Counted from the first letter of the stretch, positions 1-35,056 are shown. The stretch is 64,000 nucleotides of DNA from Candidatus Woesebacteria bacterium (GCA_016432365.1 CP066686.1:410906-474905); one strand, 5' to 3'. Numbers and translations: made by a program. Notes: a model not told the origin generated them from the letters alone.

Positions 1-1511
1 ACGATATTTGGAGCATCTTTTGGAATAGGTTTGAGTCCTAATTTTCCATCCTTATCATTTACCCAATATTCCAACAATCTGTCTATTCTGGTTATTTCGG
101 GTATCTCTTTACCTATAAGTGCTAGAATTTCCTTGCGTTTTTCCCAGGGAGTTTCCGGTTTTATAAACACCGCGAAATCAAAGTCTCCGTTATGAGCGGC
201 ATAGCCTTTTATTTTGGAGCCAAAAGCCAGGATAAATGGGTAAAAATATTTTGACAACTCGGGGCTGCCCTCAATTTTCCTCGCAATCTCGGTAATGAAA
301 AGCCCATCATTTCGGGCAAAATCCTCTAAATTTATAGGAAGCGGGTTTGATAAGTCGACAACTTCTATTCCAAGCTTTTGGGCAAACTCTGAAGGTAAAA
401 TTGATAATTTTTGCCAGACACTTACGCAGTTAATTATTTCTTCTTTTTCTTCGTTTGTTCCAAATTTCCAGATATCTTTAACGATTGCTGTTGATCTTTC
501 TGCAAAATCTTTGGCTCTGTTCCCCCCTGCTTTGACCAAAACCTCTCCGATTTTCCTCAGACTTCTAATTATAAGAATTTTATCCGTTACTTTTTCCAAT
601 TCAGACCAGGTGATTTTTTCTTGTGCGAAACCATCCGCGATCGAAAGAGCCGCTTGGTTTATGGCTTCATCTTTAAACAACCATTTTTGCCACTTTATTC
701 GTTTTTCGGAAACCTGTTTGACGTAAAGTGAATTTGGATCCAGCTTCACTTTAATTTTGTCTATGTCATCCTCAAGTTTTGAAAGGATCTCATTTAGACC
801 TTCCGGTTTAGACATTTCCGGTTCAGGTGTCATCGTTCCATCCAGAATGAAGGCCACAGCAGGTTTGTGTTGTGATAGTTTTTTGACCACCTCCATTGAT
901 TTGTCGCTGAAGAACTTGCTGTCGTTGGCAACGACAATTCCTTCTGTTAAGGCCACCATAAGTTCTTCTCCCTCAGTCACTTCTAAAATATCAAGGACCT
1001 CCGTTTCGGATACCAATCCGCGGCTTAGAAATTCGGGTAAAAGGTGGGCCGCCTTTCTGGTTCTGGCGGGTTGGCCAAGCCCCGGTTCCAGGTCATCACC
1101 GTCGTTAAAACTGGCCCGCATTTCGCTTTGAAACAGTAGTCGAACCCAGCCGTCGTGAAGCACTTTGGCAAATTCCTGAGCCTGAACAGCTTTGGTTTTG
1201 TTTAAATCGGGCATAATTTGAAAGGGGAGATATAGTATAAGTCTGATATTATTGGGATCGGCTGAAATAAAGTCAGCTAAGCCCTTGTATAGCTGATTAG
1301 CCTCGGATTCCGGGATTTTTCCGTTTTGGACGGCAAGGTCGAGGTCTTCATCGCCCATTTTTTTAAATACACCTCTTAACCTGTTAGCAAGGTCTTTCCG
1401 GATTTCCATTTCATTTATTGGCAGATCGAGGAGGTCGATTGAAATTGGGGGTAAAACATTGGGGAATATAGAGTCTCTCTCTATTTTTTTGTCAGGGTGA
1501 ATTTTTTCCAT
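1..1511 (-). CDS. Large hypothetical protein with a Pol-beta-type nucleotidyltransferase motif. Partial: N-terminus at 1511, C-terminus beyond the window edge.
   Basis: The minus-strand frame is continuous from the ATG (rc of 1509-1511) to position 1. The plus-strand ORFs 295-726 and 757-1131 are antisense artefacts. The motif FGSKIKGYAAHNGDFDFAVF fits hG[GS]-x9-13-DhDh. A sigma70 promoter lies 8 nt upstream of the ATG. Confidence 0.5.
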   Translation of the reverse strand, partial: MEKIHPDKKIERDSIFPNVLPPISIDLLDLPINEMEIRKDLANRLRGVFKKMGDEDLDLAVQNGKIPESEANQLYKGLADFISADPNNIRLILYLPFQIMPDLNKTKAVQAQEFAKVLHDGWVRLLFQSEMRASFNDGDDLEPGLGQPARTRKAAHLLPEFLSRGLVSETEVLDILEVTEGEELMVALTEGIVVANDSKFFSDKSMEVVKKLSQHKPAVAFILDGTMTPEPEMSKPEGLNEILSKLEDDIDKIKVKLDPNSLYVKQVSEKRIKWQKWLFKDEAINQAALSIADGFAQEKITWSELEKVTDKILIIRSLRKIGEVLVKAGGNRAKDFAERSTAIVKDIWKFGTNEEKEEIINCVSVWQKLSILPSEFAQKLGIEVVDLSNPLPINLEDFARNDGLFITEIARKIEGSPELSKYFYPFILAFGSKIKGYAAHNGDFDFAVFIKPETPWEKRKEILALIGKEIPEITRIDRLLEYWVNDKDGKLGLKPIPKDAPNI

Positions 1512-1556
1512 GGCCAGGGATTCTAGCACAAATGAGGCCAAAAGTCAAGGCTATGG
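1511..1556 (-). promoter_or_regulatory. Sigma70-like promoter cccatagccTTGACT-N17-TAGAAT. The -10 ends 8 nt before the ATG, so the transcript is leaderless.
   Basis: rc of 1543-1548 = TTGACT; rc of 1520-1525 = TAGAAT; spacer 17 nt. The same 16-mer aagtcaaggctatggg recurs at 2324-2339. Confidence 0.45.
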
Positions 1557-1570
1557 GATAATTTTTATCC

Positions 1571-1612
1571 AAAAAAAAGGCAGGTACCTAATAAAAAAAT
1601 TAGGCGCCTGCC
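1571..1612 (-). terminator. Rho-independent terminator for the 1637-1996 minus gene.
   Basis: GC stem ggcagg...cctgcc (1579-1584 / 1607-1612) with an inner cctaat/attagg pairing. An A8 run on the plus strand (1571-1578) gives a U-run on the minus transcript. Confidence 0.55.
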
Positions 1613-1636
1613 AGTTTGACTTACAAAGAAATGAAC

Positions 1637-1996
1637 TTAAACGATCCGAGTTGGTGTAGGCCAATCCCTAAGTTCGATTGTGATCTCGGTCCCGGGACTG
1701 TATGCTTCGTACTGTTTGACCAGTTCTTCGATGATCTGGAGGTAGACATCATCATAGATGATAATCTTGTTCGAATCACCTTTTACAATTCCACCTATCA
1801 CCCGGCCGCCATTGTCACGCTCATGTCGTGATTCAACGATCTCAAACGTGTGGTCAAGGATACTCCGGTAGTCACGATAATATGGATTTACTCCGGCGAA
1901 CATCACCCTGATTTCAATTTGGTAGGTTTTGATCCGTTTTTCCAGGAAACTCACCAATGAAACTCCAGGCAAAGTTTTGTTGTTTACAACTTTCAT
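1637..1996 (-). CDS. Hypothetical protein, 119 aa.
   Basis: ORF with RBS AGGAGA 7 nt upstream of the ATG (rc of 2003-2009). Co-directional with the 69-aa gene upstream. No recognisable domain. Confidence 0.55.
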   Translation of the reverse strand: MKVVNNKTLPGVSLVSFLEKRIKTYQIEIRVMFAGVNPYYRDYRSILDHTFEIVESRHERDNGGRVIGGIVKGDSNKIIIYDDVYLQIIEELVKQYEAYSPGTEITIELRDWPTPTRIV

Positions 1997-2040
1997 CAGA
2001 ATTCTCCTTTTTTGAATAGCTGTATCGTTTCTCGACTTGT

Positions 2041-2250
2041 CTAGATCAAGGTGTGTATATGCACAACGGGGTCATTGGCCACAAATCGGATTTCGTCCAC
2101 CCGCGCACTACTTGCGTAACCTACTTTTTTGGGGAGGACGATATAATTTCCCTGTGTCGGGATGGCTGGAAGTTCAATTTCAAAAACTTCAGTCAACTTG
2201 CCGTTTGGGTCACCTTCTTGACGAGCGACAACTAAATGAACACGAATCAT
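2041..2250 (-). CDS. Hypothetical small protein, 69 aa.
   Basis: ORF with RBS AAGGAG 6 nt upstream of the ATG on the minus strand. The overlapping plus-strand ORFs 2037-2252 and 2053-2235 lack start signals. Confidence 0.5.
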   Translation of the reverse strand: MIRVHLVVARQEGDPNGKLTEVFEIELPAIPTQGNYIVLPKKVGYASSARVDEIRFVANDPVVHIHTLI

Positions 2251-2300
2251 GATTTTGCTCCTTTCATAATTTTGATACCAACGTGCCAGCTAACGGGGGT

Positions 2301-2339
2301 ATTCTATCACTTTACTGCCCTTAAGTCAAGGCTATGGGG
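2301..2339 (-). promoter_or_regulatory. Sigma70-like promoter cccatagccTTGACT-N17-TAGAAT for the 69-aa/119-aa operon.
   Basis: rc of 2324-2329 = TTGACT; rc of 2301-2306 = TAGAAT; spacer 17 nt. The upstream element is identical to the one at 1541-1556. Confidence 0.45.
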
Positions 2340-3329
2340 TATGCTGCAACAGCAATATCTCTTCTTTTGTGCCTGAAAAAAGAGTACACTAAAGGTATGG
2401 CAGAGGTACCATCAGGTGTTTTAGCTGAGAGGGACGGGCAAGGGCAGGAAATATATGTGCAAAGCATGGAAAAAAGCGTTGAGGCCAAGGCTAAGGAAAT
2501 TTTTCCATGGGTTAAACCCGGAGTTATAGTTGATGCCGGGGCCGGGGCTGGACCTTTAACCGATCTCCTTTCCAAAAGTTTTCCTGGTAGCACAATTGTT
2601 GCTCTTGATATGTCTTCTGACATGATAGACAGGCTAAACCGCAGATTTGAGGGTAGAAAAAATGTTGAAGTTGTTCATGGCGATATTGACAGTTTTCGTT
2701 ATCGTGAGCCGGTCAGCACTTTTATTAATGTTTCTGTTTTCCATGAAGATTTTTCTTTCAATGGTTACAGTCACGAAAAAATTATTAAAACTCTTATTCG
2801 TCAGAAACAAGCATTGGAAAAAGGTGGTGTTGATATTATCCGTGACGGTGTTCAGCCCGAGCAGGAGGTTTTGTATCTAAGGCCATTAACAGAATTTGCA
2901 TGCGATAGGTTTATTAAGTTTGTAAAGGGTTTTAAACAGGTTCGTGATGTGAATTATATGATCGGAAATTTCCATTCCGACGTTTTTGTGCAAAACGGGA
3001 GAAGAAATTTTGTTGATGCCGATGTCGGTAAGTCCTTTATTGAAATTTCCTCTCAAAATGCCAGCGAAATGTTTAGCAAGTACTTTTATGCGGAAAAAAA
3101 CCTGCCTGTGGAGCTTTCCGAACAATTTGGAATTTGGACACTGCGTGAATACAAAAAAATTTTAACTGACCTAGGATTTACTGTTAAACATGCTGAAACT
3201 TTTCTTTTAGATTACCTCTTAAAAGAACATTATTCAAAAGATTTTGAAGTATTTCATCTAAAAAACGGGGTTTTGAGTAATGCTCCATATCCACCAAGTA
3301 CCATGCTTCTGGTTGGAGAAAAACAGTAA
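2334..3329 (+). CDS. Class I SAM-dependent methyltransferase. Start probably 2397.
   Basis: Motif I VDAGAGAGPLT with downstream acidic residue (IVALDMS). The first ATG overlaps the divergent promoter region. Confidence 0.6.
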   Translation: MGYAATAISLLLCLKKEYTKGMAEVPSGVLAERDGQGQEIYVQSMEKSVEAKAKEIFPWVKPGVIVDAGAGAGPLTDLLSKSFPGSTIVALDMSSDMIDRLNRRFEGRKNVEVVHGDIDSFRYREPVSTFINVSVFHEDFSFNGYSHEKIIKTLIRQKQALEKGGVDIIRDGVQPEQEVLYLRPLTEFACDRFIKFVKGFKQVRDVNYMIGNFHSDVFVQNGRRNFVDADVGKSFIEISSQNASEMFSKYFYAEKNLPVELSEQFGIWTLREYKKILTDLGFTVKHAETFLLDYLLKEHYSKDFEVFHLKNGVLSNAPYPPSTMLLVGEKQ

Positions 3330-3395
3330 GCTCTGAGCGATGCTCATTGCTGTTTTAGCATTGTAGATATTAATCTGCTAAAATTATACGATTAA

Positions 3396-6098
3396 ATGTT
3401 AAATATATTTTCCAAACTTCTCGACCTCAATGCACGCGAAGTCGACCGGCTTAAAAAAATTGTAGATAAAATAAATGGATTTGAAAATAAATATAAAAAG
3501 TTTAAAGACGCCGATTTTAAAAAAGAAACCGATCGATTTAAAAAACTAATAGCTAATGGCTATCAACTAGATACTGTTCTTCCCGAGGCATTTGCATTGG
3601 TTCGTGAGGCGGCATGGAGAGTTCTGGGGCAGCGGTCTTTTGATGTTCAGTTAATAGCAGGAATCGCGCTTTTTGAAGGAAGAGTTGCCGAACAGCGCAC
3701 AGGTGAGGGAAAAACTCTTTCTGCCGTGGCGCCGCTATATCTCCGGGCGTTGACCGGTCGAGGGGTCCACCTTGTAACAGTCAATGACTATTTAGCCAGG
3801 ATTGGGGCCGGATGGATGGGTCCCGTTTACAACTTTTTGGGATTATCTACTGGAGTAATAATTCAGGAAACAAAATCGTTTGTATACGATCCTAAATTTA
3901 GTGACACAAGTCACGGTGATGAAAGACTTTCGCATTTAAAACTTGTTGAAAGAAAAATCGCATACCAGAGTGATATTTTGTACGGTACAAATAACGAATT
4001 TGGTTTTGATTATTTGCGTGACAACATGGTTTCTTCTTTGCCTGAAATGGTTCAGCGTGGACATTATTTTGCAATTGTAGATGAGGTTGACTCAATTTTG
4101 ATCGACGAAGCCCGCACCCCACTAATTATTTCGGCGCCGGACACAGAACCCACAAAAAAATATTACGAATTCGCTTCGCTTGTAGAAAAACTAAACCCGG
4201 ACACAGATTTTAAGATTGATGAAAAAGCCAAAAGTGCAACCTTAACGGAGACAGGAATTACTCGAGTAGAAAAAATACTCGGAATTGACAATCTATATGA
4301 GAAAGATTTTGACTCAATTCATCATATAGAAAACGCTCTACGGGCCAAAACACTTTATCTTCGCGATAAAGATTATGTAGTCAAAGACAATCAAGTCACA
4401 ATCGTAGATGAATTTACCGGACGCCTTATGGTAGGCAGACGCTGGAGTGATGGACTTCACCAGGCGGTTGAGGCAAAAGAAAACGTGACGATTCAACAGG
4501 AAAGCAAAACCTTGGCAACAATTTCCTTCCAGAATTACTTCAGAATGTATGAACATTTAAGCGGAATGACAGGAACAGCATCAACTGAGGCCGAAGAATT
4601 TAGAAAGATATATAAACTTGAGGTAATTGCCATCCCGACACATGTGCCCATGATAAGGCACGATAAACCTGATCAGATTTATAAAACGCTTCGGGGGAAA
4701 TATGGCGCCTTGGTAGAGGAGATTGGCGAATGTTATAAGAAGGGTCAGCCGGTTTTGGTGGGAACGACTTCGATTGAAAAAAATGAAATTATTTCTGAAT
4801 ATCTTAAACGTAAAAAGATTCCTCACAATGTATTGAATGCTAAAAATCACGAAAAAGAGGCAGAGATAATCGCTGAGGCCGGAAAGTTGGGTGCTGTAAC
4901 TGTTGCTACAAATATGGCTGGGCGTGGTGTTGACATAATTCTTGGCGGCGCAACTCCCGAAAGAAAGCCCGGGCTAACCAGCGAAAAATTTTATAAATCG
5001 ACTGAGTTTAAAAAATGGCAGGAATCGCACGACAAAGTAATTAGTGCGGGAGGTTTGCATGTAATTGGAACAGAACGACATGAAGCGAGGCGTGTAGACA
5101 ATCAGTTGCGAGGCCGTGCTGGCCGGCAGGGGGATCCGGGATCGTCACGTTTTTATCTTTCTTTGGAAGACGACCTAATGCGTATATTTGGCGGAGAACA
5201 AATTAGCGGAATCATGGATAGGCTTAATCTTCCGGAAGATACTCCGATTGAAAATTCATTAATTGGCCGCGCCATTGAACAAGCCCAGGTAAAAGTTGAA
5301 GGATTCCATTTTGATATCCGCAAACGCCTTGTTGAATACGATGACGTTGCCAACCAGCAAAGGGAAATCGTCTACAAGTTGAGGAGACGCATACTTGATT
5401 CTTCCGATGTCAAAGAAGAAGTAGTAGAAAAGTTGAACCATCAGATAGAAAAAACCGTTCTTTCATCAACTGATCCGGACCAACTTGCAGTAGGACTTGC
5501 CGAAATGATTCCGTTTGATGATGCCTCGTTAAAAAACATCAAGTTACAAATTTCGAAAATCGACGGTGAAGAGGGGAGGAAAGAGTTTTTGATGCAAATT
5601 CTTACAGATATTTATGGAAAAAGAGAAAAAGATCTGGGGGAAAAAGTTATGCGTGAGGTAGAAAAATATGCCTATCTTGGAGCAATTGATCATCTTTGGA
5701 TGGACCACATTGACCACATTGATGATCTTAGAGAAGGAGTAACACTCAGAGCTTATGGGCAGCGTGATCCTTTAGTCGAATTTAAAAATGAAGCATTTAA
5801 TCTTTTTGAGAGATTAATCGATAGAGTGGATGAAGAGCTTGCCCACAGAATTTTCAGAATCGGTGTGGCCCAACCCCAGTCCGAAATTCCGCTTAATTTA
5901 GCGAGAGAAAATATTGATCGAGGTGACTCAACCGGCTTGTCTGGAAATGCAGACCAAACTTCTAAATCTGGTGCTCCTGCTTTCCAGCCACCAGTAAGCA
6001 GTAAACAGTCAACAGGGAAGATTAGCCGCAACGACCCTTGTTGGTGCGGCAGTGGCAAAAAGTGGAAAAAATGCCATTATCCTCAGGTGCCAAAGTGA
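3396..6098 (+). CDS. secA: Preprotein translocase ATPase SecA.
   Basis: 900 aa. Walker A GEGKTL; DEVDSILIDEARTPLIIS; C-terminal zinc-binding tail CWCGSGKKWKKCH. Confidence 0.95.
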   Translation: MLNIFSKLLDLNAREVDRLKKIVDKINGFENKYKKFKDADFKKETDRFKKLIANGYQLDTVLPEAFALVREAAWRVLGQRSFDVQLIAGIALFEGRVAEQRTGEGKTLSAVAPLYLRALTGRGVHLVTVNDYLARIGAGWMGPVYNFLGLSTGVIIQETKSFVYDPKFSDTSHGDERLSHLKLVERKIAYQSDILYGTNNEFGFDYLRDNMVSSLPEMVQRGHYFAIVDEVDSILIDEARTPLIISAPDTEPTKKYYEFASLVEKLNPDTDFKIDEKAKSATLTETGITRVEKILGIDNLYEKDFDSIHHIENALRAKTLYLRDKDYVVKDNQVTIVDEFTGRLMVGRRWSDGLHQAVEAKENVTIQQESKTLATISFQNYFRMYEHLSGMTGTASTEAEEFRKIYKLEVIAIPTHVPMIRHDKPDQIYKTLRGKYGALVEEIGECYKKGQPVLVGTTSIEKNEIISEYLKRKKIPHNVLNAKNHEKEAEIIAEAGKLGAVTVATNMAGRGVDIILGGATPERKPGLTSEKFYKSTEFKKWQESHDKVISAGGLHVIGTERHEARRVDNQLRGRAGRQGDPGSSRFYLSLEDDLMRIFGGEQISGIMDRLNLPEDTPIENSLIGRAIEQAQVKVEGFHFDIRKRLVEYDDVANQQREIVYKLRRRILDSSDVKEEVVEKLNHQIEKTVLSSTDPDQLAVGLAEMIPFDDASLKNIKLQISKIDGEEGRKEFLMQILTDIYGKREKDLGEKVMREVEKYAYLGAIDHLWMDHIDHIDDLREGVTLRAYGQRDPLVEFKNEAFNLFERLIDRVDEELAHRIFRIGVAQPQSEIPLNLARENIDRGDSTGLSGNADQTSKSGAPAFQPPVSSKQSTGKISRNDPCWCGSGKKWKKCHYPQVPK

Positions 6099-6114
6099 AT
6101 CTGTATGTAAAAGC

Positions 6115-6558
6115 ATGGAATTTAAACGCGATGAATCGAATGGGTCAAAAATGTCTTGGGTCAGAGAATTGGTAGACCCGGATGGATCTTTACCAAAAAT
6201 TGAATTGGAAGACGACCCCCGTCAGAAAGAAAAACATATAAAAAACATATTGCTAGACGGGCAGAAAATTGGTGAACTATCGATAGGCGGAAGCGGCAAG
6301 TTTCGTCATTTTGAAAAAGTTTCCCTTTCGGAAACAGACCGGCCCAAGGGTTGCGGTCTGGCAACTTATCTTTTAGCGATTGAAGAAGCTCAAAAGGATG
6401 GGGCGGTATTCGAAACAACTTCTTGGTATTTGACCGAAGATTCAGTGAAAATTTGGAAAATACTGGCGGAAAAAGGAGTGGCGACGGTTGTTGATGAATT
6501 CGTACAAGTAACTGACGTTCCCCAATTTATGGGCAAATATCGAGTTTATACGAAATAG
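6115..6558 (+). CDS. Small GNAT-fold acetyltransferase-like protein. ORF-track start 6052 overlaps the secA 3' end.
   Basis: R-x-x-G-x-G/A motif RPKGCGLATYLL typical of the GNAT acetyl-CoA loop. Its last 31 codons are duplicated at 8506-8598. Confidence 0.4.
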   Translation: MEFKRDESNGSKMSWVRELVDPDGSLPKIELEDDPRQKEKHIKNILLDGQKIGELSIGGSGKFRHFEKVSLSETDRPKGCGLATYLLAIEEAQKDGAVFETTSWYLTEDSVKIWKILAEKGVATVVDEFVQVTDVPQFMGKYRVYTK

Positions 6559-6580
6559 CCTGATATAATTTTTGCTAAAT
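6465..6580. repeat. Direct repeat copy 1, about 115 bp: the 3' end of gene 6115-6558 plus TGaTATAAT promoter.
   Basis: Aligns with 8506-8620 with 3 mismatches (gaattc/gaattt, gggcaaa/gggtaaa, tagcctg/tagtctg). Confidence 0.85.
6561..6569 (+). promoter_or_regulatory. Extended -10 promoter TGaTATAAT, 9 nt upstream of ATG 6579.
   Basis: TG at 6561-6562, TATAAT at 6564-6569. An identical copy lies at 8602-8610. Confidence 0.45.
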
Positions 6581-7151: not shown

Positions 7152-7183
7152 TATACTTTCGGTATAGACTACAGAATATTGTT

Positions 7184-8464: not shown

Positions 8465-8505
8465 TTTTAAAATATGGAAATTGGTTTTCAAGCGGAACGG
8501 CGCGA

Positions 8506-8620
8506 GGCGGAAAAAGGAGTGGCGACGGTTGTTGATGAATTTGTACAAGTAACTGACGTTCCCCAATTTATGGGTAAATATCGAGTTTATACGAAATAGT
8601 CTGATATAATTTTTGCTAAT
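8506..8620. repeat. Direct repeat copy 2. It leaves an orphan 3' gene fragment (…EKGVATVVDEFVQVTDVPQFMGKYRVYTK*) and a second copy of the promoter.
   Basis: See copy 1 at 6465-6580. Confidence 0.85.
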
Positions 8621-9518: not shown

Positions 9519-9557
9519 AAAAAAATTTGATATATTGTGAAAGATATTTTTAACAAA

Positions 9558-10067: not shown

Positions 10068-10068
10068 A

Positions 10069-10326
10069 CTATTCTTCAATAATATCTGTAGCGTTAAAAT
10101 ATCCTGAATTGAAGTTTTGGCTTAAGTTTTCAAGGAAAATTTTTCCGTCCTTCGGAAACACCTTTTCTGGTGTTTCTGCAGCGTAATTTATAATGCCTTC
10201 ACTGTTCAGATTTGCGACAAGACCGCTGTCCCCGTCACATTTAACAGAGTTGTTTTCAAGCACGCAAGTACAAATCACTTTCTGTGACCCGTCATTTTCC
10301 AGTTTGTATATTAATACTTTGGCCAT
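10069..10326 (-). CDS. Hypothetical small protein, 85 aa; last gene of a 3-gene minus operon.
   Basis: ORF overlapping the upstream gene by 16 nt, which suggests translational coupling. Confidence 0.4.
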   Translation of the reverse strand: MAKVLIYKLENDGSQKVICTCVLENNSVKCDGDSGLVANLNSEGIINYAAETPEKVFPKDGKIFLENLSQNFNSGYFNATDIIEE

Positions 10327-11120
10327 ATTGATTCCGTCGATCCAGGATGATAAGTAAAATCATTCATATCGTCCCAGCTAATTTTACCGCGAGCAAGAAA
10401 TTTGTTTGCTTGATTAATTCTGGCAAACATTGCGTCAATTGTTTTGCCCGGAACAAGTTCTTCTAAAGCCTCTCTTAACCTGTTTTGCTTTTCGTCACTC
10501 GTTAGAAAACTGTCATACTGTTTTGCTAAAGTAGTTGGGATGAGTCTGCCTGCTACCATTTTTGATAAATTCTCGGGTATCCATCCTCGGAGCCACTCGT
10601 TGAACGAAACCCCATTGTCAATTGCAATAACCCGACGGTCTTTTATAAATAAGTTTTCCGGTTTCCTGTCTTTATTCCAGACAACATAGTCGAAAATAGC
10701 GATTTCAAACAACTGGCCCCTTACAGCTTCTTTTTCCCCGTCTCCAGTTTCCCTAAGTGTTCGTTTTGGATCCGGAATAAAATCCTGAATACTCCCCTCA
10801 GCCCCATTGATTGTTCTAATTATTGTAGGGGGAACAAGTCCCGGGTGTAGTGCTTTTGATACAAGATATGCGGCCCGTTCCCTTTTATATAACAAACGAT
10901 GCGATTCGGGAAATTCCCATAAGGTGTCTTCACCCCTGCCCGGTTTAAAAACTCCATTTCCATCCCCTCCAAAATATATCAGCTGTACGATATTACTTCC
11001 CCCAATCAAATTTTTTGTTCTACCCTCATCAATAGGAAGAGTTAAGAGTTCCGTTTCTCTTGAGTCTGAAATAGCTAGTATGTCGGGATTTTGAGGGAGA
11101 TCTCTTGGGAGCGCGTCCAT
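10311..11120 (-). CDS. Protein-kinase-like fold protein (atypical, ePK/PI3K-like catalytic motifs).
   Basis: NKDRKPENLFI resembles the ePK catalytic loop HRDLKPEN. IAIDNG lies 17 residues later in the position of DFG. A Gly-rich stretch GGDGNGVFKP is near the N-terminus. Confidence 0.5.
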   Translation of the reverse strand: MDALPRDLPQNPDILAISDSRETELLTLPIDEGRTKNLIGGSNIVQLIYFGGDGNGVFKPGRGEDTLWEFPESHRLLYKRERAAYLVSKALHPGLVPPTIIRTINGAEGSIQDFIPDPKRTLRETGDGEKEAVRGQLFEIAIFDYVVWNKDRKPENLFIKDRRVIAIDNGVSFNEWLRGWIPENLSKMVAGRLIPTTLAKQYDSFLTSDEKQNRLREALEELVPGKTIDAMFARINQANKFLARGKISWDDMNDFTYHPGSTESIWPKY

Positions 11121-11126
11121 TTAAAT

Positions 11127-11630: not shown

Positions 11631-11667
11631 TGATAATCAATCTAAAATATTCAATTTCGAATGTCAA
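11631..11667 (-). promoter_or_regulatory. Sigma70-like promoter TTGACA-N17-TAGATT for the 11630-10069 operon.
   Basis: rc of 11662-11667 = TTGACA. Two TTCGAA palindromes in the divergent intergenic region may be operators. Confidence 0.4.
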
Positions 11668-11721
11668 GATCTAATAACCATCGGTATTCACAAATACTCA
11701 ATTTGTCAGATTCGAAACTTC

Positions 11722-13986
11722 TTGACCGTTAAGTGGAAAAAGATGTTTAAAAAGAATAAAATTCTAATTGCTGGTAATAAAAAAATGGAAACAAGACTAC
11801 CTGTACGAGATCGAATCATTCCCAGAACGCTTGATGTGTTGACTCAACCAATTCGAAGCGGTTTGGATTACGGTTTGCATAAAGTTACGCGTGGTAAATA
11901 TAAGGCCGATCTCGAATTATATTTCGGCCCCCATGAACACAAGTCAGAGATTGATAAAGGTTTACATGATACTGCGCAGGTCCTTACCGACATCGATGAA
12001 AAACTTGCGGGTGGGAGCGAATTCATAGGCGATAAGTTTGAGGTTTGGAAAAAGGTAAAAACCGAACTGGAGGATCATGTTGGCTTAAAAATAACCGACC
12101 AAGTTTTGATAGACCGGAAAGGTGGCAACCATGTTCTATTTGCAGAAAAGGACGACAAAATTGTCCCCATATTTCTATCGGGAGTATCAACCGAGGGCGA
12201 CACGAGAAGTCTTTTTGGCATCGGCAATGAGTATCCAAAAGAAGCAAATACCTCAGAGAACGTAGCCAGAGAATTGACAATATTCAAAATAATGGAGGCC
12301 GAGGCCTTAGAACCGGAAAATTATAAATTGAGAAAGGTTGATTCGGTTGCAAATGATTTTGAACTACGGAGGCATGCACTTTTTGAAAGAGAAGGTGATG
12401 AGTTTGAAGCAATAAGAGCTCAAGGCGCCCTAAGTATAGGCGAGCTGCAAACTGTTTCCAGGCTTTTGCTTTTTGGGGGAATAACTTTTGAAGAAGGAGA
12501 AGTAAGAACAAGTCCGTCACTTGAAGACATTTGGATTAAAACAAGGATGATCTCCATGGGCGAAAATGTGGATACAAAAACAGCTCAGGCAGTAGCTCAA
12601 AAAGAAATTGCTCAATTCGCTAAGGAGGTCGTTTATTTTCGTTTGGCCCAACAATATTTTGTAGAACACCCCGACGTGACCAGAGAATTTATGAAATCGG
12701 AATACTACCTCCAACATCGAAAAGATTTTATAAATTCGCATCTTGCTGCCCGTGGCCAAACGGAAGAAAAAATTGCCGAAGCTATGCTTGCGAATTATTG
12801 TCTTGCAAGGTTCGAAAAAACAGACATAGAAAATTCTCCATCCCAAAAATACATTAAGGATAAAGAAGGCTTCATGGGGGATATTGACAACTTTTTGACA
12901 GGTTTGGGTGTCTTTGTCCCGGGTGAAATTAGAGATTTAGCTACAGAGCTAAAAGGAGCCTTAGTCAATAAAGTTATAAGCTACAATCAAAGATATGTTG
13001 CCCTGGCCGAGGCCAAACGATCTTTAGAGAAGGTTGCAAATGAAATATGGCGCCACAAAGAAACACGGAAAATATTTGATCGATTGGTACAGCTGTCTCC
13101 ATTTGATTTTGTCGATGATAAAGAAAAACCGGTAAAAGTATTCAGAGTGATTATTGGTAATTTAGGTCTTGCCAAGGTTCCAGGTGAGGGTAAATTCACA
13201 ATGTCGAGCTATTTACCAAAAGTTCCATATTATCCGGAAGGCAGTGAGGTTTTGCCGTTCGATCCCGAAAAGGCAAGACACGCAAAAATTATCGATTCGA
13301 TAAAGTGTATATTTGACGGGAGTGTTTTGCCGCCAAGCGGTTCTGGTGAAAAGGCTAGCGCATATGAATCTCAGGTGACGAGAATTTATACGGAAGGAAC
13401 CACGATTTTAAGATTTTTGACTGAAGATCCGAGAATCCCTGATAACGTTAGGGAATTTGTACAAGCAATAACAAGCGACAATCTTGGCCAAAAAATTCTG
13501 GAACGTTATGGTCCGGTTAGCGATCAAGATCCTCAAATAGTCAACAGGTTTTTTAAAGACGGCTTCGACCGTTTTCAGACAATGATAACCCATCGTTATG
13601 TCACCGATTTTGTTAGAGGAGTCGAAACAAATTTAATACTTCTTACGGGGGGCACAGGGGATAAAGTAAGCAGGCAATTTATGGGGGATTGGAAGAATTT
13701 TGATTTTTCTCAATTACCGGATGAAGTTGTAGATAAAGCGATTGAGATGACACTCGCGGACGGCAAACACAGACTTGAGCTACTTAACCATGAGACGTCG
13801 GAAAGAACAACGCTAAAAGATAAGCAGGAACTTTTGGAAAAAGTTTTCGGTTGGAATACTTACGATATGTGGTTTTTGAGATGGGAGAAATTCTGGAATG
13901 TTTGGAATACTTTGGGGGGCGCTTGGGACTGTATATGTTTTATGAGAAAACCGATATTTAACCCTGGCACCATCAAGCAATTTTGA
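11722..13986 (+). CDS. Large hypothetical cytoplasmic protein, about 750 aa; start uncertain (11722 TTG, 11743 ATG or 11782 ATG).
   Basis: Long ORF divergent from the kinase-like operon. No P-loop or other recognised motif. Confidence 0.55.
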   Translation: MTVKWKKMFKKNKILIAGNKKMETRLPVRDRIIPRTLDVLTQPIRSGLDYGLHKVTRGKYKADLELYFGPHEHKSEIDKGLHDTAQVLTDIDEKLAGGSEFIGDKFEVWKKVKTELEDHVGLKITDQVLIDRKGGNHVLFAEKDDKIVPIFLSGVSTEGDTRSLFGIGNEYPKEANTSENVARELTIFKIMEAEALEPENYKLRKVDSVANDFELRRHALFEREGDEFEAIRAQGALSIGELQTVSRLLLFGGITFEEGEVRTSPSLEDIWIKTRMISMGENVDTKTAQAVAQKEIAQFAKEVVYFRLAQQYFVEHPDVTREFMKSEYYLQHRKDFINSHLAARGQTEEKIAEAMLANYCLARFEKTDIENSPSQKYIKDKEGFMGDIDNFLTGLGVFVPGEIRDLATELKGALVNKVISYNQRYVALAEAKRSLEKVANEIWRHKETRKIFDRLVQLSPFDFVDDKEKPVKVFRVIIGNLGLAKVPGEGKFTMSSYLPKVPYYPEGSEVLPFDPEKARHAKIIDSIKCIFDGSVLPPSGSGEKASAYESQVTRIYTEGTTILRFLTEDPRIPDNVREFVQAITSDNLGQKILERYGPVSDQDPQIVNRFFKDGFDRFQTMITHRYVTDFVRGVETNLILLTGGTGDKVSRQFMGDWKNFDFSQLPDEVVDKAIEMTLADGKHRLELLNHETSERTTLKDKQELLEKVFGWNTYDMWFLRWEKFWNVWNTLGGAWDCICFMRKPIFNPGTIKQF

Positions 13987-14519
13987 TGAAGTTTTTTAAA
14001 AGATACACGAAAGTTTGGGGGATATTAATTGCTGTATTAATTTCCCTGTTAATTTTTATCTTCCGGGACAAGCTTGCCGGCCTTCAGACTTATGGCTTTT
14101 TTGGTCTTTTCTTGCTAAACATAGTTGGTAGCGCAACATTGTTTTTACCCACCCCACTTTTTTTATCGGCATTTGTTGCTGGTTCAATTTATAACCCAAT
14201 TTTAGTGGCAATAGTAGCGTCAGCCGGTTCGGCTATTGGGGAACTTACCGGGTATCTGGCCGGTTATGGGGCGGAGGATATTTTGGAAAAAGACATAAAA
14301 GTCCAAAAGATTAAAGGGTGGATGAAAAAGCGAGGCTTTTTGACTCTTTTTTTGTTGGCGGCAATTCCAAATCCGGTATTTGACATGGCTGGGTTTGTAG
14401 CCGGGGCAACAGATGTTTCGGTTAAAAAGTACCTAATCGCTGTTTGGTTGGGAAAACTTGTTAAATTTTCTGTGATATCGTATGCCGGAGCGAGCTCGCT
14501 GGCATTATTTGGAGTATAA
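13983..14519 (+). CDS. DedA/YqaA (SNARE-associated TVP38) family membrane protein.
   Basis: Conserved pattern LPTPLF ... G..IGELTGYLAGYG. Confidence 0.6.
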   Translation: MMKFFKRYTKVWGILIAVLISLLIFIFRDKLAGLQTYGFFGLFLLNIVGSATLFLPTPLFLSAFVAGSIYNPILVAIVASAGSAIGELTGYLAGYGAEDILEKDIKVQKIKGWMKKRGFLTLFLLAAIPNPVFDMAGFVAGATDVSVKKYLIAVWLGKLVKFSVISYAGASSLALFGV

Positions 14520-14526
14520 TCTGGCC

Positions 14527-14769
14527 ATGAGTGAAGCCCAATTTGATCCGGACAAAATCAGATTAAGTTTAATAAATGATGCCTATAAACGTGGCATGAG
14601 ATATGGACAGATAACCCCAGATATGCAGATTGCACAGTGGATGGCAATCGGTTTAAAACGTTTGGAAGAAGGTAAAATTCTTACATCCGAAGCATTGGAA
14701 GCTATAGACAGAATGGGCGGAACCGATCACCCCGATCCGTTTATCGATCCCCGAAGGAAATTAATCTAG
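14527..14769 (+). CDS. Hypothetical small protein.
   Basis: ORF only; the ORF-track start 14482 overlaps the upstream gene. Confidence 0.3.
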   Translation: MSEAQFDPDKIRLSLINDAYKRGMRYGQITPDMQIAQWMAIGLKRLEEGKILTSEALEAIDRMGGTDHPDPFIDPRRKLI

Positions 14770-14789
14770 TTTGATGCTAAAATCTCCTC

Positions 14790-15890
14790 GTGGCCAAAAA
14801 ATACTTTAAATCGAAAAATGGGGACATTTCCCTTCCTGTTTTTTTTCCAGATGCTACGCGTGCCGTTGTAAGATCAATTGATACAACAGATCTGGAAAGT
14901 ACCAAAACTCCGGGGATTTTAGTCAACACCTTTCATTTGTGGCAGGGACTTGGAAAAGATGTCCTGAAAAGGTTTGGCGGAGTTCGTGAACTTATGGATT
15001 ACAAAGGAGGGGTAATTTCCGATTCCGGCGGATTTCAGGTTATGTCTGTTATTAAATCCGGGCAGCTAAAAGGCAAAATTACGGATGAGGGAGCCGTGTT
15101 TTACCCGTCACAAAATAAAAAGAAGATTCTTACACCCGAAAAATCTATCGAATTTCAGATGACCCTTAAAACCGATATGGTGGTTGTACTGGATGACTTT
15201 ACCGATCCTAAATCAAATTACGATGAGGCTAAGATATCTGTAGAAAGAACTCTGGATTGGGCCAAGCGGAGTAAAAACGAATTCGATAAAATTTGCAAGG
15301 ACAGAAAGCTCTCGATTGATGCGCGCCCCTATATTTTGGGAGTGGTACAGGGAGGAAAATTTCAAGATTTAAGGGAGTACTGCACCAAAGAACTGGTAAA
15401 AATAGGATTTGACGGTTTGGGTTATGGGGGTTGGCCGATTACGGAAGAGGGGAGTTTTGATTACGATTCCGCAAAATCTATTGCCAACAATGTTCCGGAG
15501 GACTATTTTCTCTATGGACTTGGAGTGGGCAAACCCAACGAAGTCGTTGAATGTTCTAAATTAGGTTTCAATATTTTTGATTGTGTTTTGCCTACACGCG
15601 ACGGCAGGCACGGAAGGCTGTATGTTTACAATGCAACATCAATAAAAGGAATTGACGTTTTTGCCCCGAAAATTTATTCGTTTTTTACTCCGAGCAAGGA
15701 AGTTTATTATAAAGATACATCTCCGGTCAGCCTTGCTTGTGATTGTCTACTTTGTACCCGCTATTCAAGGGCATATCTTGCTCATTTATTTAAAATCGGA
15801 GATTTTACAGCTGGGCGCTTGGCCACCATCCACAATCTTCGTTTTTACTCCATTTTGATGGAGAAGATTGGAGAAAAACTTCGGGGTTGA
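14790..15890 (+). CDS. tgt: tRNA-guanine transglycosylase (queuine tRNA-ribosyltransferase family).
   Basis: DSGGFQ substrate motif. Zinc site CDCLLCTRYSRAYLAHL (CxCxxC...H). Confidence 0.8.
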   Translation: MAKKYFKSKNGDISLPVFFPDATRAVVRSIDTTDLESTKTPGILVNTFHLWQGLGKDVLKRFGGVRELMDYKGGVISDSGGFQVMSVIKSGQLKGKITDEGAVFYPSQNKKKILTPEKSIEFQMTLKTDMVVVLDDFTDPKSNYDEAKISVERTLDWAKRSKNEFDKICKDRKLSIDARPYILGVVQGGKFQDLREYCTKELVKIGFDGLGYGGWPITEEGSFDYDSAKSIANNVPEDYFLYGLGVGKPNEVVECSKLGFNIFDCVLPTRDGRHGRLYVYNATSIKGIDVFAPKIYSFFTPSKEVYYKDTSPVSLACDCLLCTRYSRAYLAHLFKIGDFTAGRLATIHNLRFYSILMEKIGEKLRG

Positions 15891-15927
15891 CATATTGAGA
15901 TATTTGAGCTTATACTTCGGCACTTAC

Positions 15928-16596
15928 ATGGAAGACGGTCAAAATACAGGAAATAGTCAGGTTCAAGCTCCACCTCAGGAAACTTTATCTCCGAATGTGT
16001 CTTTTCCAACTGTTGGTCAACCTCAAAAAGGGGGCGGTGCCAAGACTCTTCTTGTTGTCGGTATTCTAGTCTTGGTGGCGATTTTGGGTTTTGTGATTTA
16101 TAAAAGTGCAACCAGTAAAGGCGAGGCCTTGGCCGAGCCCACTCCTATCGAAAATCAAATAGTCGGAAATCAGGATGTAAATACAGATACACCCACGCCT
16201 GTCGCAACAGCCAAACCTATTGATAAAACCCAGGTTTCGATCCAAATTCAAAATGGCACAGGTATTACAGGAGAGGCCGCCTACCTTCAAACTGCTCTTA
16301 AAGATTTGGGATATACAGATGTTAAGGTTGGAAATGCAGGCGATCAGACAGCTTCGGTTACGGTTGTTACTTTTAGTAGCTCTCTTGATTCGGCAGCCGT
16401 CAGCGAGTTAACTCTAAAACTTAATTCTATTTACCAGAATGTTACCGTTAAAACCTCAAGCACACAGACATTTGATGTAGTAGTTGTTACAGGACTAAGG
16501 AAAGGTACAACTGCAAAGCCTTCTGCCTCACCTTCACCCAAACCAAGCACCTCTCCAAGCGTAAGTCCTAGCACATCTCCAACTGGAACTCAATAG
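15928..16596 (+). CDS. Membrane-anchored LytR_C (cell-envelope-associated attenuator C-terminal) domain protein with Ser/Pro-rich tail.
   Basis: TM anchor, then VSIQIQNGTGITGEAAYLQTALKDLGY typical of the LytR_C domain. The ORF-track start 15868 overlaps tgt. Confidence 0.5.
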   Translation: MEDGQNTGNSQVQAPPQETLSPNVSFPTVGQPQKGGGAKTLLVVGILVLVAILGFVIYKSATSKGEALAEPTPIENQIVGNQDVNTDTPTPVATAKPIDKTQVSIQIQNGTGITGEAAYLQTALKDLGYTDVKVGNAGDQTASVTVVTFSSSLDSAAVSELTLKLNSIYQNVTVKTSSTQTFDVVVVTGLRKGTTAKPSASPSPKPSTSPSVSPSTSPTGTQ

Positions 16597-16701
16597 TTTC
16601 ACACCGTCCCACAGCCTGTGAAAACTCGTGTGAAACAAGCCTTAGAAGCGAAGTCCCCCGAAGCGGAACATTTTTCGCGAAGGGGGAAAATAATTATCCT
16701 G

Positions 16702-16722
16702 TGATACAATTATTTTGCCGTG
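16702..16722 (+). promoter_or_regulatory. Extended -10 TGaTACAAT, 9 nt upstream of GTG start 16720.
   Basis: Same TGn-TAnAAT-N9-start pattern as at 6561 and 8602. Confidence 0.35.
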
Positions 16723-17169
16723 CAACAGTTTTCCCAGATCTTAAGTTTTATCAGCCGGAGCTTTAATTTAAATCTCGGCAAGTTTTCTATCCCTGTAACT
16801 TATTGGGAGGTAGGCGCAATAATTTTTCTCATTTTCCTTTTAATTTTGAGTATGGCTCAGTTTAGACGCCATTATGTGGACTATGGTCTCAAGGGGGGTA
16901 TTTTCGGTGTGGTTATTGGATTCCTACTGGCCTTAGTTTTGGAAGGATTTTTGATTGTCGGGGGCAAAACCGCCGTGACTGAGTTTTTAGGCTGGAAAAA
17001 CGCTCCAAAGCCTTTGCAGGTAGCCTTAGATGCCGGCAAAACCCAACTTATTCAGGTTTTGGGAGTAAGTAGTCCGGACAACTCCACATTCCAGGGTGCT
17101 TTGGAAAATATTCAGACTTTAAGCCCCGCGGACCTCAAAAAGGTCAAAAGCCTCATCTGCCAACCCTGA
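16720..17169 (+). CDS. Hypothetical membrane protein, 149 aa.
   Basis: Two TM helices then a soluble tail; GTG start. Confidence 0.45.
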   Translation: MQQFSQILSFISRSFNLNLGKFSIPVTYWEVGAIIFLIFLLILSMAQFRRHYVDYGLKGGIFGVVIGFLLALVLEGFLIVGGKTAVTEFLGWKNAPKPLQVALDAGKTQLIQVLGVSSPDNSTFQGALENIQTLSPADLKKVKSLICQP

Positions 17170-17206
17170 CCCATAGTTTGACTTTCTGGTGTGTTTTTGA
17201 TATAAT
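17170..17206 (+). promoter_or_regulatory. Sigma70 promoter cccatagtTTGACT-N17-TATAAT.
   Basis: TTGACT 17178-17183; TATAAT 17201-17206. The cccatag upstream element matches the promoters at 1550, 2333 and 18610. About 95-nt leader with AGGAGG RBS before GTG 17300. Confidence 0.55.
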
Positions 17207-17299
17207 AGCCCTTCGTTGTTAGTTTTTCGTTGTTAAGTACATTAACAGCTTCAAGAGAAAATAATTCAAATTCAACACTTACCTTGAAAGGAGGCAAAA

Positions 17300-18472
17300 G
17301 TGAACGAAAGATTTAGAGTCAACTTGTTTGACTGTACCAATTGCGGAACGACCAAGATCTATGCATTTCTTCACGAATGTCCTGGTTGCGGAACCCCGAA
17401 TCCTGGCCAAGGTCATTGGTATCCTGGGCCCTATGTGACTGATATCAAAATGTTGCAGCTTGCGGCCAAAGAGCCTTTTTGGAAGTGTTCCCATTGTGAA
17501 GGATCAAACTTCGGAGAAGACAAAAGCAAGGGCTGTCAGCATTGCGGACATGAATACGACCCGAGCGATATCAGCGCAAAAGTTATCCCAGGCGGAACCA
17601 GCCAAACGAACGCTCCAAGGCGTCCGGCTGTGCACGATTCGTCCTATTATGTTCCTGCCGATCTTCCCTCACCCAAGGTCGTTCATTCCAGCCCGAGTTA
17701 TCAGCGGAGCATGGTCAGTTCGCTGCCTAGTTACAAAAGTAGCGGCAGGAGTGGACTGAGGCTTGACGGACAGACGCTTGGAATTGCGGCAGTAATCTTG
17801 GTGATAGTTGCTCTTTTGGGGGCATTTTTGTTCGCCAAGTTTCACACAACTGCACACAATGCTGAGTTTACTGGGCCTTCTTGGACGCGGTCATTCGACG
17901 TTCAACGGTTTGAGGTTGTACATGAATCAGACAGCACATCCAACCCTCCAGCTTCGGCCTACAACATAGATTCTTGGGTTACCACTGAAAAAAAAGAGGT
18001 GACACGGTCGGAGGAATATACAGTTCCAAAAACCTGCCACCATAGTGAAGATTTGGGCAATGGATTTACTCGCGAATGGGACGAAGACTGTAGTTATACT
18101 GCTACAAGACAGGTCTTTGATCACTACGATTACATCGACACAACTCACTACAGTTACGATCACAATGAGTGGGTTTTTTACCGGACTATCAGCGAGAGTC
18201 GAGACAACTTCGAGCCGTTTTGGCCTGCTTACAACCTAAATCTGGAGGGCCAGACTGTTCTCGGCGCTGAAAGAGCGGTGAATTATCGTGAAACCTACAC
18301 GCTCAAATTCGATTGGTACGATAAAGATGAAACCAAATTTACGGCTATTTATAAGGTTTCTGAGGCCGAATGGCACCAGTATGTTGTTGGTGAGTACTAT
18401 CCGATCGAAGTAAATAGCCTGGGTGAAGTCAGGAACAATCCTCTTCAGGATAAACTTAACCCGCCGGAGTAA
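17300..18472 (+). CDS. Double zinc-ribbon membrane protein with an extracytoplasmic C-terminal domain.
   Basis: CxxC...CxxC twice (CTNCG...CPGCG; CSHCEG...CQHCGH), then a Pro/Ser linker, one TM helix and about 200 aa outside. First gene of the higher-GC island. Confidence 0.55.
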   Translation: MNERFRVNLFDCTNCGTTKIYAFLHECPGCGTPNPGQGHWYPGPYVTDIKMLQLAAKEPFWKCSHCEGSNFGEDKSKGCQHCGHEYDPSDISAKVIPGGTSQTNAPRRPAVHDSSYYVPADLPSPKVVHSSPSYQRSMVSSLPSYKSSGRSGLRLDGQTLGIAAVILVIVALLGAFLFAKFHTTAHNAEFTGPSWTRSFDVQRFEVVHESDSTSNPPASAYNIDSWVTTEKKEVTRSEEYTVPKTCHHSEDLGNGFTREWDEDCSYTATRQVFDHYDYIDTTHYSYDHNEWVFYRTISESRDNFEPFWPAYNLNLEGQTVLGAERAVNYRETYTLKFDWYDKDETKFTAIYKVSEAEWHQYVVGEYYPIEVNSLGEVRNNPLQDKLNPPE

Positions 18473-18609
18473 ATCTCTTGAAGCTTTAGTTGAACCTTGG
18501 GACTGGAAAGTCAATTTGTCGATCTTTGACACGTTGATACTACCAGTCCCTGTTTGTTTTTCCCCATAATTTTTAATTTTAAATTATTAATTATAAATTT
18601 ATGTTTCAT

Positions 18610-18647
18610 CCCATAGCTCTTGACTTTTTCTATTTTTCTGGTATACT
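18610..18647 (+). promoter_or_regulatory. Sigma70 promoter cccatagctcTTGACT-N16-TATACT.
   Basis: TTGACT 18620-18625; TATACT 18642-18647. The long leader carries the aacatcttgagattc motif at 18721-18735. Confidence 0.45.
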
Positions 18648-18778
18648 TGCCTCACGTCTTTTGACTGGGAAACCGGTCAGTTTTTTTGCGACTGGGATTT
18701 CAGTGTAAAAAGTGAACATTAACATCTTGAGATTCAAAGATAGTTAAAACATTTCAAAAAGGTTCAAGGAGGAACCAA

Positions 18779-34996: not shown

Positions 34997-35056
34997 CCTC
35001 GAGTCGAACCTAACCCCATAAGGCATCCTTATATGACACTCCGTGTCCTATAATAA

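Follow-up and report, generated by a model that had tools for sequence, protein, structure and literature searches.

Bacterial promoters can carry sequence elements just upstream of the −35 hexamer, and several such systems have been described. The proximal subsite of the UP element, of the Escherichia coli rrnB P1 type, has the consensus AAAAAARNR, lies at −46 to −38 and binds the C-terminal domain of RNA polymerase's alpha subunit (alpha-CTD). Class II activator sites are centred near −41.5, as for CRP, FNR, NtcA and lambda cI at OR2; they are dyad-symmetric, 14–22 bp long, usually replace or weaken the −35 hexamer, and define coherent regulons. Other elements serve small factors that are tethered to the polymerase, i.e., the “−44 AGCA” element of Spx/alpha-CTD in Bacillus and the AT-hook site of WhiB7 upstream of the −35 hexamer in Actinobacteria. 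For the Patescibacteria (candidate phyla radiation, CPR), a very large and mostly uncultivated radiation, almost nothing is known, to our knowledge, about transcription signals. Here, we discuss a short element with the core CCCATAG, located directly upstream of the −35 hexamer, in 64,000 nucleotides of DNA from Candidatus Woesebacteria bacterium (GCA_016432365.1 CP066686.1:410906-474905), a stretch that we refer to as “the window”, and in related genomes. A general description of UP elements has been published, as have lineage-specific core promoters, including the extended −10 (TGn/TRTG) of Firmicutes and the divergent −35 of Bacteroidota (PMC12641261).

We refer to the element as the “box”. 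CCCATAG is the core of an oriented box in a distinct class of full-consensus promoters, and on balance it is probable that the box is read by a component of the general transcription machinery. The box has a 10-base, orientation-specific consensus, RNCCYATAGT, and lies at about −45 to −38. In the promoter class that carries it, the box is 0–4 bp upstream of TTGACT, which is followed by a 16–17-nt spacer and TGnTAnAAT. Full-text literature searches, not covering all journals, found no description of the box, nor of such a promoter element in CPR, Patescibacteria, or Saccharibacteria, and no such box is reported in the passages retrieved from a 2025 cross-phylum promoter survey that includes Nanosynbacter start sites. 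We rate the box as a new auxiliary upstream promoter element for which no published description was found.

Box promoters in the window

The heptamer CCCATAG by itself is not enriched in the window, with 4 occurrences observed and 4.99 expected. By contrast, the composite CCCATAG-N1-3-TTGACT is observed 4 times where 0.01 is expected, and occurs more than once in 0/100 shuffles. Given this count of the composite, we consider the element non-random. The initial annotation of this DNA had listed four promoters with the heptamer directly upstream of TTGACT, and all four are present where it placed them, as read directly in the sequence. We use the letters A–F for promoters in the window, and L-numbers (L002–L248) for related loci fetched for comparison.

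Two of the four promoters are on the minus strand. Promoter A (1509–1559) has the box atCCCATAG at 1559–1551 (heptamer 1557–1551), a gap of cc, TTGACT at 1548–1543, a 17-nt spacer, TGc (TG 1528–1527), and the −10 hexamer TAGAAT at 1525–1520, with 8 nt between this hexamer and the ATG at 1511. Promoter B (2301–2340) has acCCCATAG at 2340–2332 (heptamer 2338–2332), a gap of cc, TTGACT at 2329–2324, a 17-nt spacer, TGa, and TAGAAT at 2306–2301; it is predicted to drive open reading frames (ORFs) of 69 aa (2250–2041) and 119 aa (1996–1637). The 16-mer CCCATAGCCTTGACTT is indeed identical in promoters A and B, as had been reported, and the identity between them stops after these 16 nt. The other two promoters are on the plus strand. 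Promoter C (17168–17206) has gaCCCATAG (heptamer 17170–17176), a gap of t, TTGACT at 17178–17183, a 17-nt spacer, TGa, and TATAAT at 17201–17206, and lies upstream of a gene for a 390-aa zinc-ribbon membrane protein (17300–18472); its box begins immediately past the stop codon of a gene encoding 149 aa. Promoter D (18608–18647) has atCCCATAG (heptamer 18610–18616), a gap of ctc, TTGACT at 18620–18625, a 16-nt spacer, TGg, and TATACT at 18642–18647, and would drive an operon encoding a 567-aa lipoprotein-like protein (18779–20482) and a 367-aa protein.

All four sites have the features of sigma-70 (sigma A) type promoters: TTGACT, a spacer of 16/17 nt, a −10 hexamer of TAGAAT, TATAAT, or TATACT, and TGn. 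The TGn extension of the −10 hexamer is present at 4/4 of the CCCATAG promoters and absent from the other good promoter-like sites in the window (35057+, 27158−, 15887+, and 53844+). A fixed “nn” between the heptamer and the −35 hexamer, as first described, does not hold, since the actual gaps in promoters A, B, C, and D are 2, 2, 1, and 3 nt, respectively.

Degenerate copies of the box extend this set to six. Two promoters had been described as lacking the element; this is correct for the one at 53844, but the one at 35057 carries a degenerate copy, CCTATAA-taa-TTGACT (35047–35062). This promoter, promoter F (35045–35085, plus strand), consists of gtCCTATAA, a gap of taa, TTGACT at 35057–35062, a 17-nt spacer, and TATAAT at 35080–35085, and is followed by an ATG at 35099 that opens an epimerase/dehydratase-like gene. 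The second degenerate copy, CCCATAA-c-TTTACT (38873–38860, minus strand), belongs to a promoter spanning 38873–38837. Including the two bases before the heptamer, this promoter, promoter E (38837–38875, minus strand), consists of atCCCATAA, a gap of c, TTTACT, a 17-nt spacer, TGt, and TATATT; the TAA of its box doubles as the stop codon of the upstream gene, and it would drive a 64-aa membrane ORF (38772–38578). At 6/6 window sites (A–F), there is a purine at −2 relative to the heptamer.

Distribution across genomes

We scanned one genome per species, for 185,579 species, with the pattern CCCATAG-N1-3-TTGACT-N13-14-TGNTANANT. The scan yielded at least 118 loci; among the matches listed, ~100 are from CPR genomes and ~18 from elsewhere. 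By our own estimate, which assumes uniform base composition, ~26 matches would be expected by chance for the whole species collection, and the ~18 non-CPR matches, which are spread over unrelated phyla, are in line with this prediction. Among the matches listed, the CPR loci are named as Woese-, Levy-, Curtiss-, Woyke-, Blackburn-, Collier-, Ames-, and Gottesmanbacteria, WWE3, Dojkabacteria, and Saccharibacteria, with Parcubacteria labels on just two loci, such that this group seems under-represented. A scan of phages gave only 5 matches, none of them with CPR-type flanking bases, and was uninformative.

Of the matches listed, ~40% carry “uncultured Gammaproteobacteria” labels. These labels, together with “uncultured Pseudomonadales” (third party annotation (TPA) assemblies, within L003–L117), appear to be systematically wrong. 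One of the genomes in question is syntenic with the window, and another is a 915-kb “chromosome”. For two more “Gammaproteobacteria” genomes, ThrRS and DnaB score far better against Gram-positive homologues than against those of E. coli; similarly, the SecA of the window has better scores with its Bacillus and Mycobacterium counterparts than with that of E. coli. Judged from such comparisons, at least some “uncultured Gammaproteobacteria” metagenome-assembled genomes (MAGs) appear to behave like CPR genomes. Taken together, the matches show the box, as a feature of predicted promoters, to be lineage-wide in Woesebacteria, Microgenomates, WWE3, Saccharibacteria, and related Patescibacteria, rather than the mark of a four-gene regulon.

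Another element that contains CCCATAG was observed in rumen Firmicutes (Ruminococcus flavefaciens and Oscillospiraceae; L045, L068 with two copies, and L097). This recurrent, promoter-like element is >70 nt long, has the form GCATAGC-CCCATAG-(A/G)-TTGACTTTTTCGGGGCGGTTTGGTATAAT, and includes a tandem CATAG motif.

Consensus and position of the box

The bases flanking the heptamer were free in the search pattern, and are strongly biased in CPR genomes. Among the matches listed, a purine two bases 5′ of the heptamer is present in 97/101 CPR sites vs 11/18 non-CPR sites, and a T directly after the heptamer in 83/101 vs 6/18. Because these bases are preferred in CPR matches at positions that the pattern left free, we extend the full box to RNCCCATAGT.

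The box was also recovered from promoters that had been chosen without reference to it. We collected 46 promoters of the form TTGACW-N13-15-TGnTAnnnT from the fetched CPR loci and the window, with the locus-seeding promoters excluded. The top 6-mers just 5′ of the −35 hexamer in this motif-unselected set are CCTATA, CTATAG, CCCATA, and CCATAG, with 6–8 observed vs ~0.1 expected, and a CCYATAG-like sequence is present in ~20/46. CCTATAG, which was never searched for in those loci, has TTGACW 0–3 nt downstream in 7/54 cases; reversed control heptamers have none at these gaps. For non-seed boxes, the distance to the extended −10 peaks sharply at 31–33 nt; in the reverse orientation and with scrambled controls, its distribution is flat.

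A metagenome scan with the T variant, CCTATAG, yielded at least 120 sites. Among those listed (n = 120), 83% have a purine at −2, and the box is followed by T in 67/120 (56%) and by G in 7/120 (6%); the gap between the box and the −35 hexamer is 0, 1, 2, and 3 nt in 10, 45, 38, and 27 sites, respectively. A palindrome, CCTATAGG, which would imply a dimeric factor, had been raised from a few cases; it was ruled out, since the base after the box at these 120 sites is mostly T and rarely G. Within the window, a longer gap between the box and the −35 hexamer seemed to go strictly with a shorter spacer, but the 119 genome matches listed do not support such a compensation rule. In contigs with the T variant, the C variant is linked to promoters in 1/35, whereas the CCCATAG-seeded loci use both variants. 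Because T-variant contigs are almost without promoter-linked CCCATAG, we suggest that use of the C variant is restricted by lineage.

In a minor class of promoters, the full 8-mer CCCATAGT lies within the spacer between the −35 and −10 hexamers. This arrangement was found in 4/297 promoters (L002, L032, L075, and L247), with ~0.04 expected by our own estimate. No gene for an autoregulated binder was found past the spacer-box promoters.

Conservation at orthologous promoters

Orthologues of the gene downstream of promoter A were fetched by protein similarity alone (37–48% identity). The promoter architecture is retained upstream of these genes, with the box in the same place and varying within the consensus (CCTATAG, CTCATAG, or CCCATAA). 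The equivalents of promoter A are CCTATAGccTTGACT...TGtTAAAAT in L121 and L122, and CTCATAGtaTTGACT-17-TAAAAT in L120, each followed by 8 nt and an ATG, and CCCATAAttTTGACA-17-TAAAAT in L123. The slot in L121 that matches promoter B likewise has a CCTATAGccTTGACT promoter.

The window is syntenic with L106 (Ca. Woesebacteria GW2011_GWB1_39_10), L039, L100, L027, and L025. This synteny, the SecA scores, and the identity of the promoter A protein to HYV90_02390 place the window in a CPR genome of the Microgenomates group. Promoter D is near-identical in L039 and L106, where it is conserved as DNA together with a leader of ~130 nt (L039, 3830–3933; L106, minus strand, about 5100–5220). In the more diverged L027, conservation of promoter D is confined to the box, the −35 hexamer, and the −10 hexamer, upstream of an orthologous lipoprotein-like gene. 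The first ORF past the promoter D leader in L039 and L106 (655 aa) has no tblastx match to the 567-aa gene of the window.

The slot after the conserved 149-aa gene (window, 17170–18609; L039, 3145–3780; L106, 5230–5800; L100, 6840–7400) holds different genes in each genome. In L100, it holds another membrane protein gene, with a box promoter at the same junction as promoter C. In L039 and L106, it holds small two-gene modules with their own promoters, which have no box; these modules look like a ribbon-helix-helix antitoxin with a RelE-like toxin.

Promoter use and downstream genes

The position of start codons downstream of the box promoters is consistent with real transcription. In 46/229 box promoters, an ATG that opens an ORF of ≥80 aa lies 6–15 nt past the −10 hexamer, with a peak at 6–9 nt; in the same 229 promoters, such an ATG lies at 0–5 nt in none and at 16–28 nt in 3. 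This peak points to leaderless mRNAs that start at the canonical distance, and thus predicts real start sites. On this basis, ~20% of box promoters appear to yield leaderless mRNAs. The mRNA from promoter A appears to be among them, with the ATG at 1511 located 8 nt past the −10 hexamer and the NCBI start codon (P0001) at the identical position. The encoded 621-aa nucleotidyltransferase-like protein matches hypothetical protein HYV90_02390 (Candidatus Woesebacteria bacterium) with 100% identity. An automatic gene call at L121 10001 had chosen as start codon a GTG that belongs to the promoter and lies upstream of the true ATG.

The first genes past 101 and 109 box promoters have no Pfam family in common, and the majority lack any Pfam assignment. 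The others include genes for PheS, GatC, DEAD-box helicases, kinases, glycosyltransferases, and IS605/TnpB. Because the downstream genes are mixed, with both housekeeping and mobile IS605/TnpB genes included, the box is more likely to be in general than in specific use. A theme of secreted or membrane proteins was considered and rejected, since an N-terminal hydrophobic segment was found in 32% of downstream products vs 33% of controls. In the metagenome loci (L129–L248), 4/109 first genes past CCTATAG-box promoters are of the IS605-type OrfB/TnpB, and 1/109 first-gene products matches a Cas12f1-like TNB domain.

Promoters of stable RNAs differ from this class. The 59 tRNA genes of the related loci mostly have extended −10 promoters (TGnTAnAAT) without a recognisable −35 hexamer, such that there are two promoter classes per genome. 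A role for the box as a strength element of stable-RNA promoters was ruled out, since the tRNA promoters have no box. A suspected link to rRNA in L066 and L112 was not confirmed, as there is no 16S gene after the promoter.

In both of the primary sigma factors that were found, region 4.2 resembles that of Bacillus SigA. The C-terminus of the one from L081 is complete and has no extension; the end of the one from L099 is masked. No second sigma-70 paralogue was found in about 0.9 Mb. An extra sigma domain as the reader of the box was ruled out by these canonical primary sigma factors, and because region 4.2 is canonical and no extra domain is present, the reader is likely to be something other than sigma.

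Possible mechanisms

The observations described above show a conserved cis element that is tied to predicted sigma-A-type promoters. The proposal in the initial annotation that the heptamer is a genuine promoter element fused to the −35 hexamer is borne out, as the box is orientation-specific, sharply positioned, and kept at orthologous promoters. The accompanying suggestion of a “UP-like or activator-binding” element was the right kind of idea, but the box differs from a classical UP element, being G/C-containing, sequence-specific, and absent from tRNA promoters. The further idea of a small regulon of four promoters is not supported: the box is found at ~20/46 motif-unselected promoters of relatives, spans Microgenomates, WWE3, and Saccharibacteria, and precedes genes of mixed functions.

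In the mechanism that we propose, the box would provide an extra sequence-specific protein contact adjoining sigma region 4. This contact would be made by a reader of a general kind, namely alpha-CTD or, more likely, a small RNA polymerase-associated factor, and its interaction with the box would help to recruit or stabilise the polymerase at box promoters. The 0–4 bp of spacing freedom suggests that the reader is flexibly tethered. Because placement is sharp, the −35 hexamer is never overlapped, and the core elements are perfect, the reader is more likely to bind together with the polymerase than to compete with it. A small polymerase-associated factor is favoured over alpha because the position of the box fits the proximal UP subsite but its sequence is unlike alpha-CTD sites. 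More broadly, we put forward as a tentative possibility that much of the CPR uses an undescribed core-promoter element, RNCCYATAGT, that is read by a general polymerase-associated factor or by a re-specified alpha-CTD.

Several points weigh against a reader from the general transcription machinery. The box is sequence-specific and contains G/C, unlike the A/T-rich sites of alpha-CTD. Extra recruitment is not obviously needed, because the promoters already have a perfect −35 hexamer and an extended −10. A box plus TTGACT promoter was found at 0/59 tRNA genes of related loci. L075 and L247 have double boxes, with CCCATAGT in the spacer plus an upstream box 20–21 bp away, a distance at which the two would lie on about the same helical face; spacer copies and double boxes are a better fit for a separate DNA-binding regulator than for a polymerase subunit. 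Lastly, searches of the fetched DNA loci found no rpoA, and no box-binding protein was identified among the genes searched.

In the main rival explanation, the box would be an operator for a conserved global transcription factor that is separate from RNA polymerase. Such a factor might have a dual role, as an activator from about −41 and as a repressor from the spacer, or be a pure repressor that tames very strong promoters. We consider this unlikely. In its favour, the box is short and well defined (8–10 bp), and is present at only a subset of promoters; CCCATAGT is found in the spacers of L002, L032, L075, and L247, with double boxes in the latter two; and consensus core elements are typical for repressor-controlled promoters. 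The unequal use of variants between the two sets of loci, with CCCATAG linked to a promoter in only 1/35 cases in the CCTATAG-seeded contigs and both variants in the CCCATAG-seeded loci, also speaks for a separate factor. However, the downstream genes have no common function, mobile IS605/TnpB genes use the box, and no family of DNA-binding genes recurs past box promoters as an autoregulated candidate. In addition, the box of the main class never overlaps the −35 hexamer and keeps to a 5-bp range, which looks like co-binding with the polymerase. It is improbable that the box is the site of a dedicated activator whose small regulon comprises a few transcription units of this genome. The box is indeed shared by four promoters that rank among the strongest of the window and drive poorly characterised genes, but six window promoters carry it once the degenerate copies are included, about 20 of the 46 motif-unselected −35/extended −10 promoters of relatives carry the box, and it is found in several candidate phyla. 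Moreover, the −35 hexamer matches the consensus, unlike those of activator-dependent promoters, and the functions of the downstream genes are heterogeneous.

We regard it as still less probable that the box is a −10-like hexamer, YATAGT standing in for TATAAT, and works as a tandem promoter upstream or lures sigma region 2 as a decoy. YATAGT agrees with TATAAT at 4–5/6 positions, 82% of the CPR sites listed have the final T, and variants such as CCTATAAT include a perfect TATAAT. Yet there is neither a −35 hexamer nor TGn upstream of the box, the hexamer is preceded by CC, and the upstream positions are free of signal; in the true −10 hexamers of the same promoters, no base is rarer at position 5 than the G that the box has there (9/119, matches listed), and position 1 can be C where the −10 consensus has T. 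The last group of explanations, i.e., chance, a recent local duplication of a promoter cassette, or the boundary or recombination site of a mobile cassette, is effectively refuted. The identical 16-mer of promoters A and B and the variation of the gene slots beside promoters B and C among related genomes would fit a duplication or a cassette. Against this, similarity between sites is confined to the functional elements, neither flanking repeats nor genes for recombinases were seen, and the box is always tied to the −35 hexamer at 0–4 nt; the composite would be expected only 0.01 times in the window, and the box is kept across candidate phyla and at diverged orthologues. Nor do the window copies resemble a dispersed repeat of the repetitive extragenic palindrome (REP) or miniature inverted-repeat transposable element (MITE) kind, given that the identity between A and B ends at 16 nt and all copies are fused to a −35 hexamer.

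Neighbouring features and other observations

Many of the proteins encoded in the window have no family assignment, and Rfam and tRNA scans of its 64 kb gave no matches. Directly upstream of promoter A, there is a predicted intrinsic terminator (1571–1612, minus strand) composed of GGCAGGCGCCTAAT-T7-ATTAGGTACCTGCC and then T8. From its sequence and position, this terminator probably closes the operon of the 69- and 119-aa ORFs and insulates promoter A from it.

Promoter D is followed by a structured leader. A hairpin at 18661–18687 (plus strand), TTGACTGG-GAAA-CCGGTCAG followed by U7, lies ~15 nt into the promoter D transcript and has a fold z of −2.87. In terms of the leader as a whole (18654–18778, plus strand), the transcript opens with a UUGACUGG-GAAA-CCGGUCAG hairpin and U7, beyond which GACUGGG is found a second time. 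The 3′ arm differs in L039 and L106 by a G-to-A change that converts a U·G wobble to a U-A pair, so that pairing is kept. The hairpin resembles a terminator or attenuator, which it could be; a small RNA is another possibility. Elsewhere, the motif TTTGGGGAAAGGRGCATTTGCGC occurs about 25–35 nt past box promoters in L066, L089, L093, and L112, which are MAGs labelled Gottesmanbacteria, Taylorbacteria, and “uncultured Gammaproteobacteria” (twice). The motif has no Rfam match and is not followed by a 16S gene; it may represent a leader or non-coding RNA that is so far undescribed. L112 also matches the type III hammerhead ribozyme, though below threshold (3463–3517, plus strand; 34.6 bits vs a gathering score of 48.5), in a stretch between a box promoter and a tRNA/23S rRNA cluster.

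Three further observations were made. The window contains a 114-nt direct repeat (6465–6578 and 8506–8619) whose copies are 97% identical and 2041 nt apart, one over the 3′ end of a 168-aa ORF and the other just upstream of an EamA transporter gene. A 269-aa protein encoded at 10311–11120 (minus strand) weakly matches the PI3/PI4-kinase catalytic domain (E = 1.6e-6). In L094 (285–1583, plus strand), a single 433-aa ORF fuses a peptide deformylase (N-terminal) to a methionyl-tRNA formyltransferase (C-terminal).

Implications and comparison with known promoter systems

Since the box marks strong promoters, it offers a sequence-only route to CPR promoters and start sites, and can aid the correction of gene starts. 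Box promoters could serve as ready-made strong promoters for new genetic systems in Saccharibacteria, and the box itself as bait in the search for an undescribed component of CPR transcription. Should the reader belong to or ride on RNA polymerase, the box would be a new element in bacterial promoter grammar; if it is a CPR-wide core element, it would represent a new sequence-specific contact in bacterial promoter recognition.

The box shares some features with each of the systems described at the outset. Where the operator of a repressor might overlap the promoter, the main class of boxes has a gap of 0–4 nt to the −35 hexamer and no overlap; the minor class, with CCCATAGT in the spacer, accounts for 4/297 promoters. 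Like a class II activator site, the box is centred at about −41 ± 2, beside sigma region 4. Unlike such a site, it is only 8–10 bp long and is asymmetric, with a forward-only peak and the palindrome-completing G at 6% of the sites listed, and it accompanies a perfect −35 hexamer and heterogeneous targets.

The position of the box is that of a proximal UP subsite, as it abuts the upstream edge of the −35 hexamer and starts 31–33 nt 5′ of the −10 hexamer (about −45 to −38). Also as for UP elements, there are near-consensus core elements alongside, and a few bp of positional freedom, as would be expected for a flexibly tethered reader. However, CCYATAGT is oriented, has three or four G/C in its 8-base core and no A/T tract, and is absent from stable-RNA (tRNA) promoters (0/59). 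With the lineage-specific core promoters of Firmicutes and Bacteroidota, the box has in common that it is a clade-wide addition to the canonical −35/−10 grammar; it differs in being located upstream of the −35 hexamer, in bacteria whose primary sigma factor looks canonical.

The sites of Spx and WhiB7 are, like the box, short asymmetric elements immediately 5′ of the −35 hexamer. They have other sequences, are found in other lineages, and control defined stress regulons, and no homologous factor was identified for the box. Among the mechanisms compared here, a factor of the Spx/WhiB7 type that rides on the polymerase is nonetheless the one that we consider most compatible with the data.

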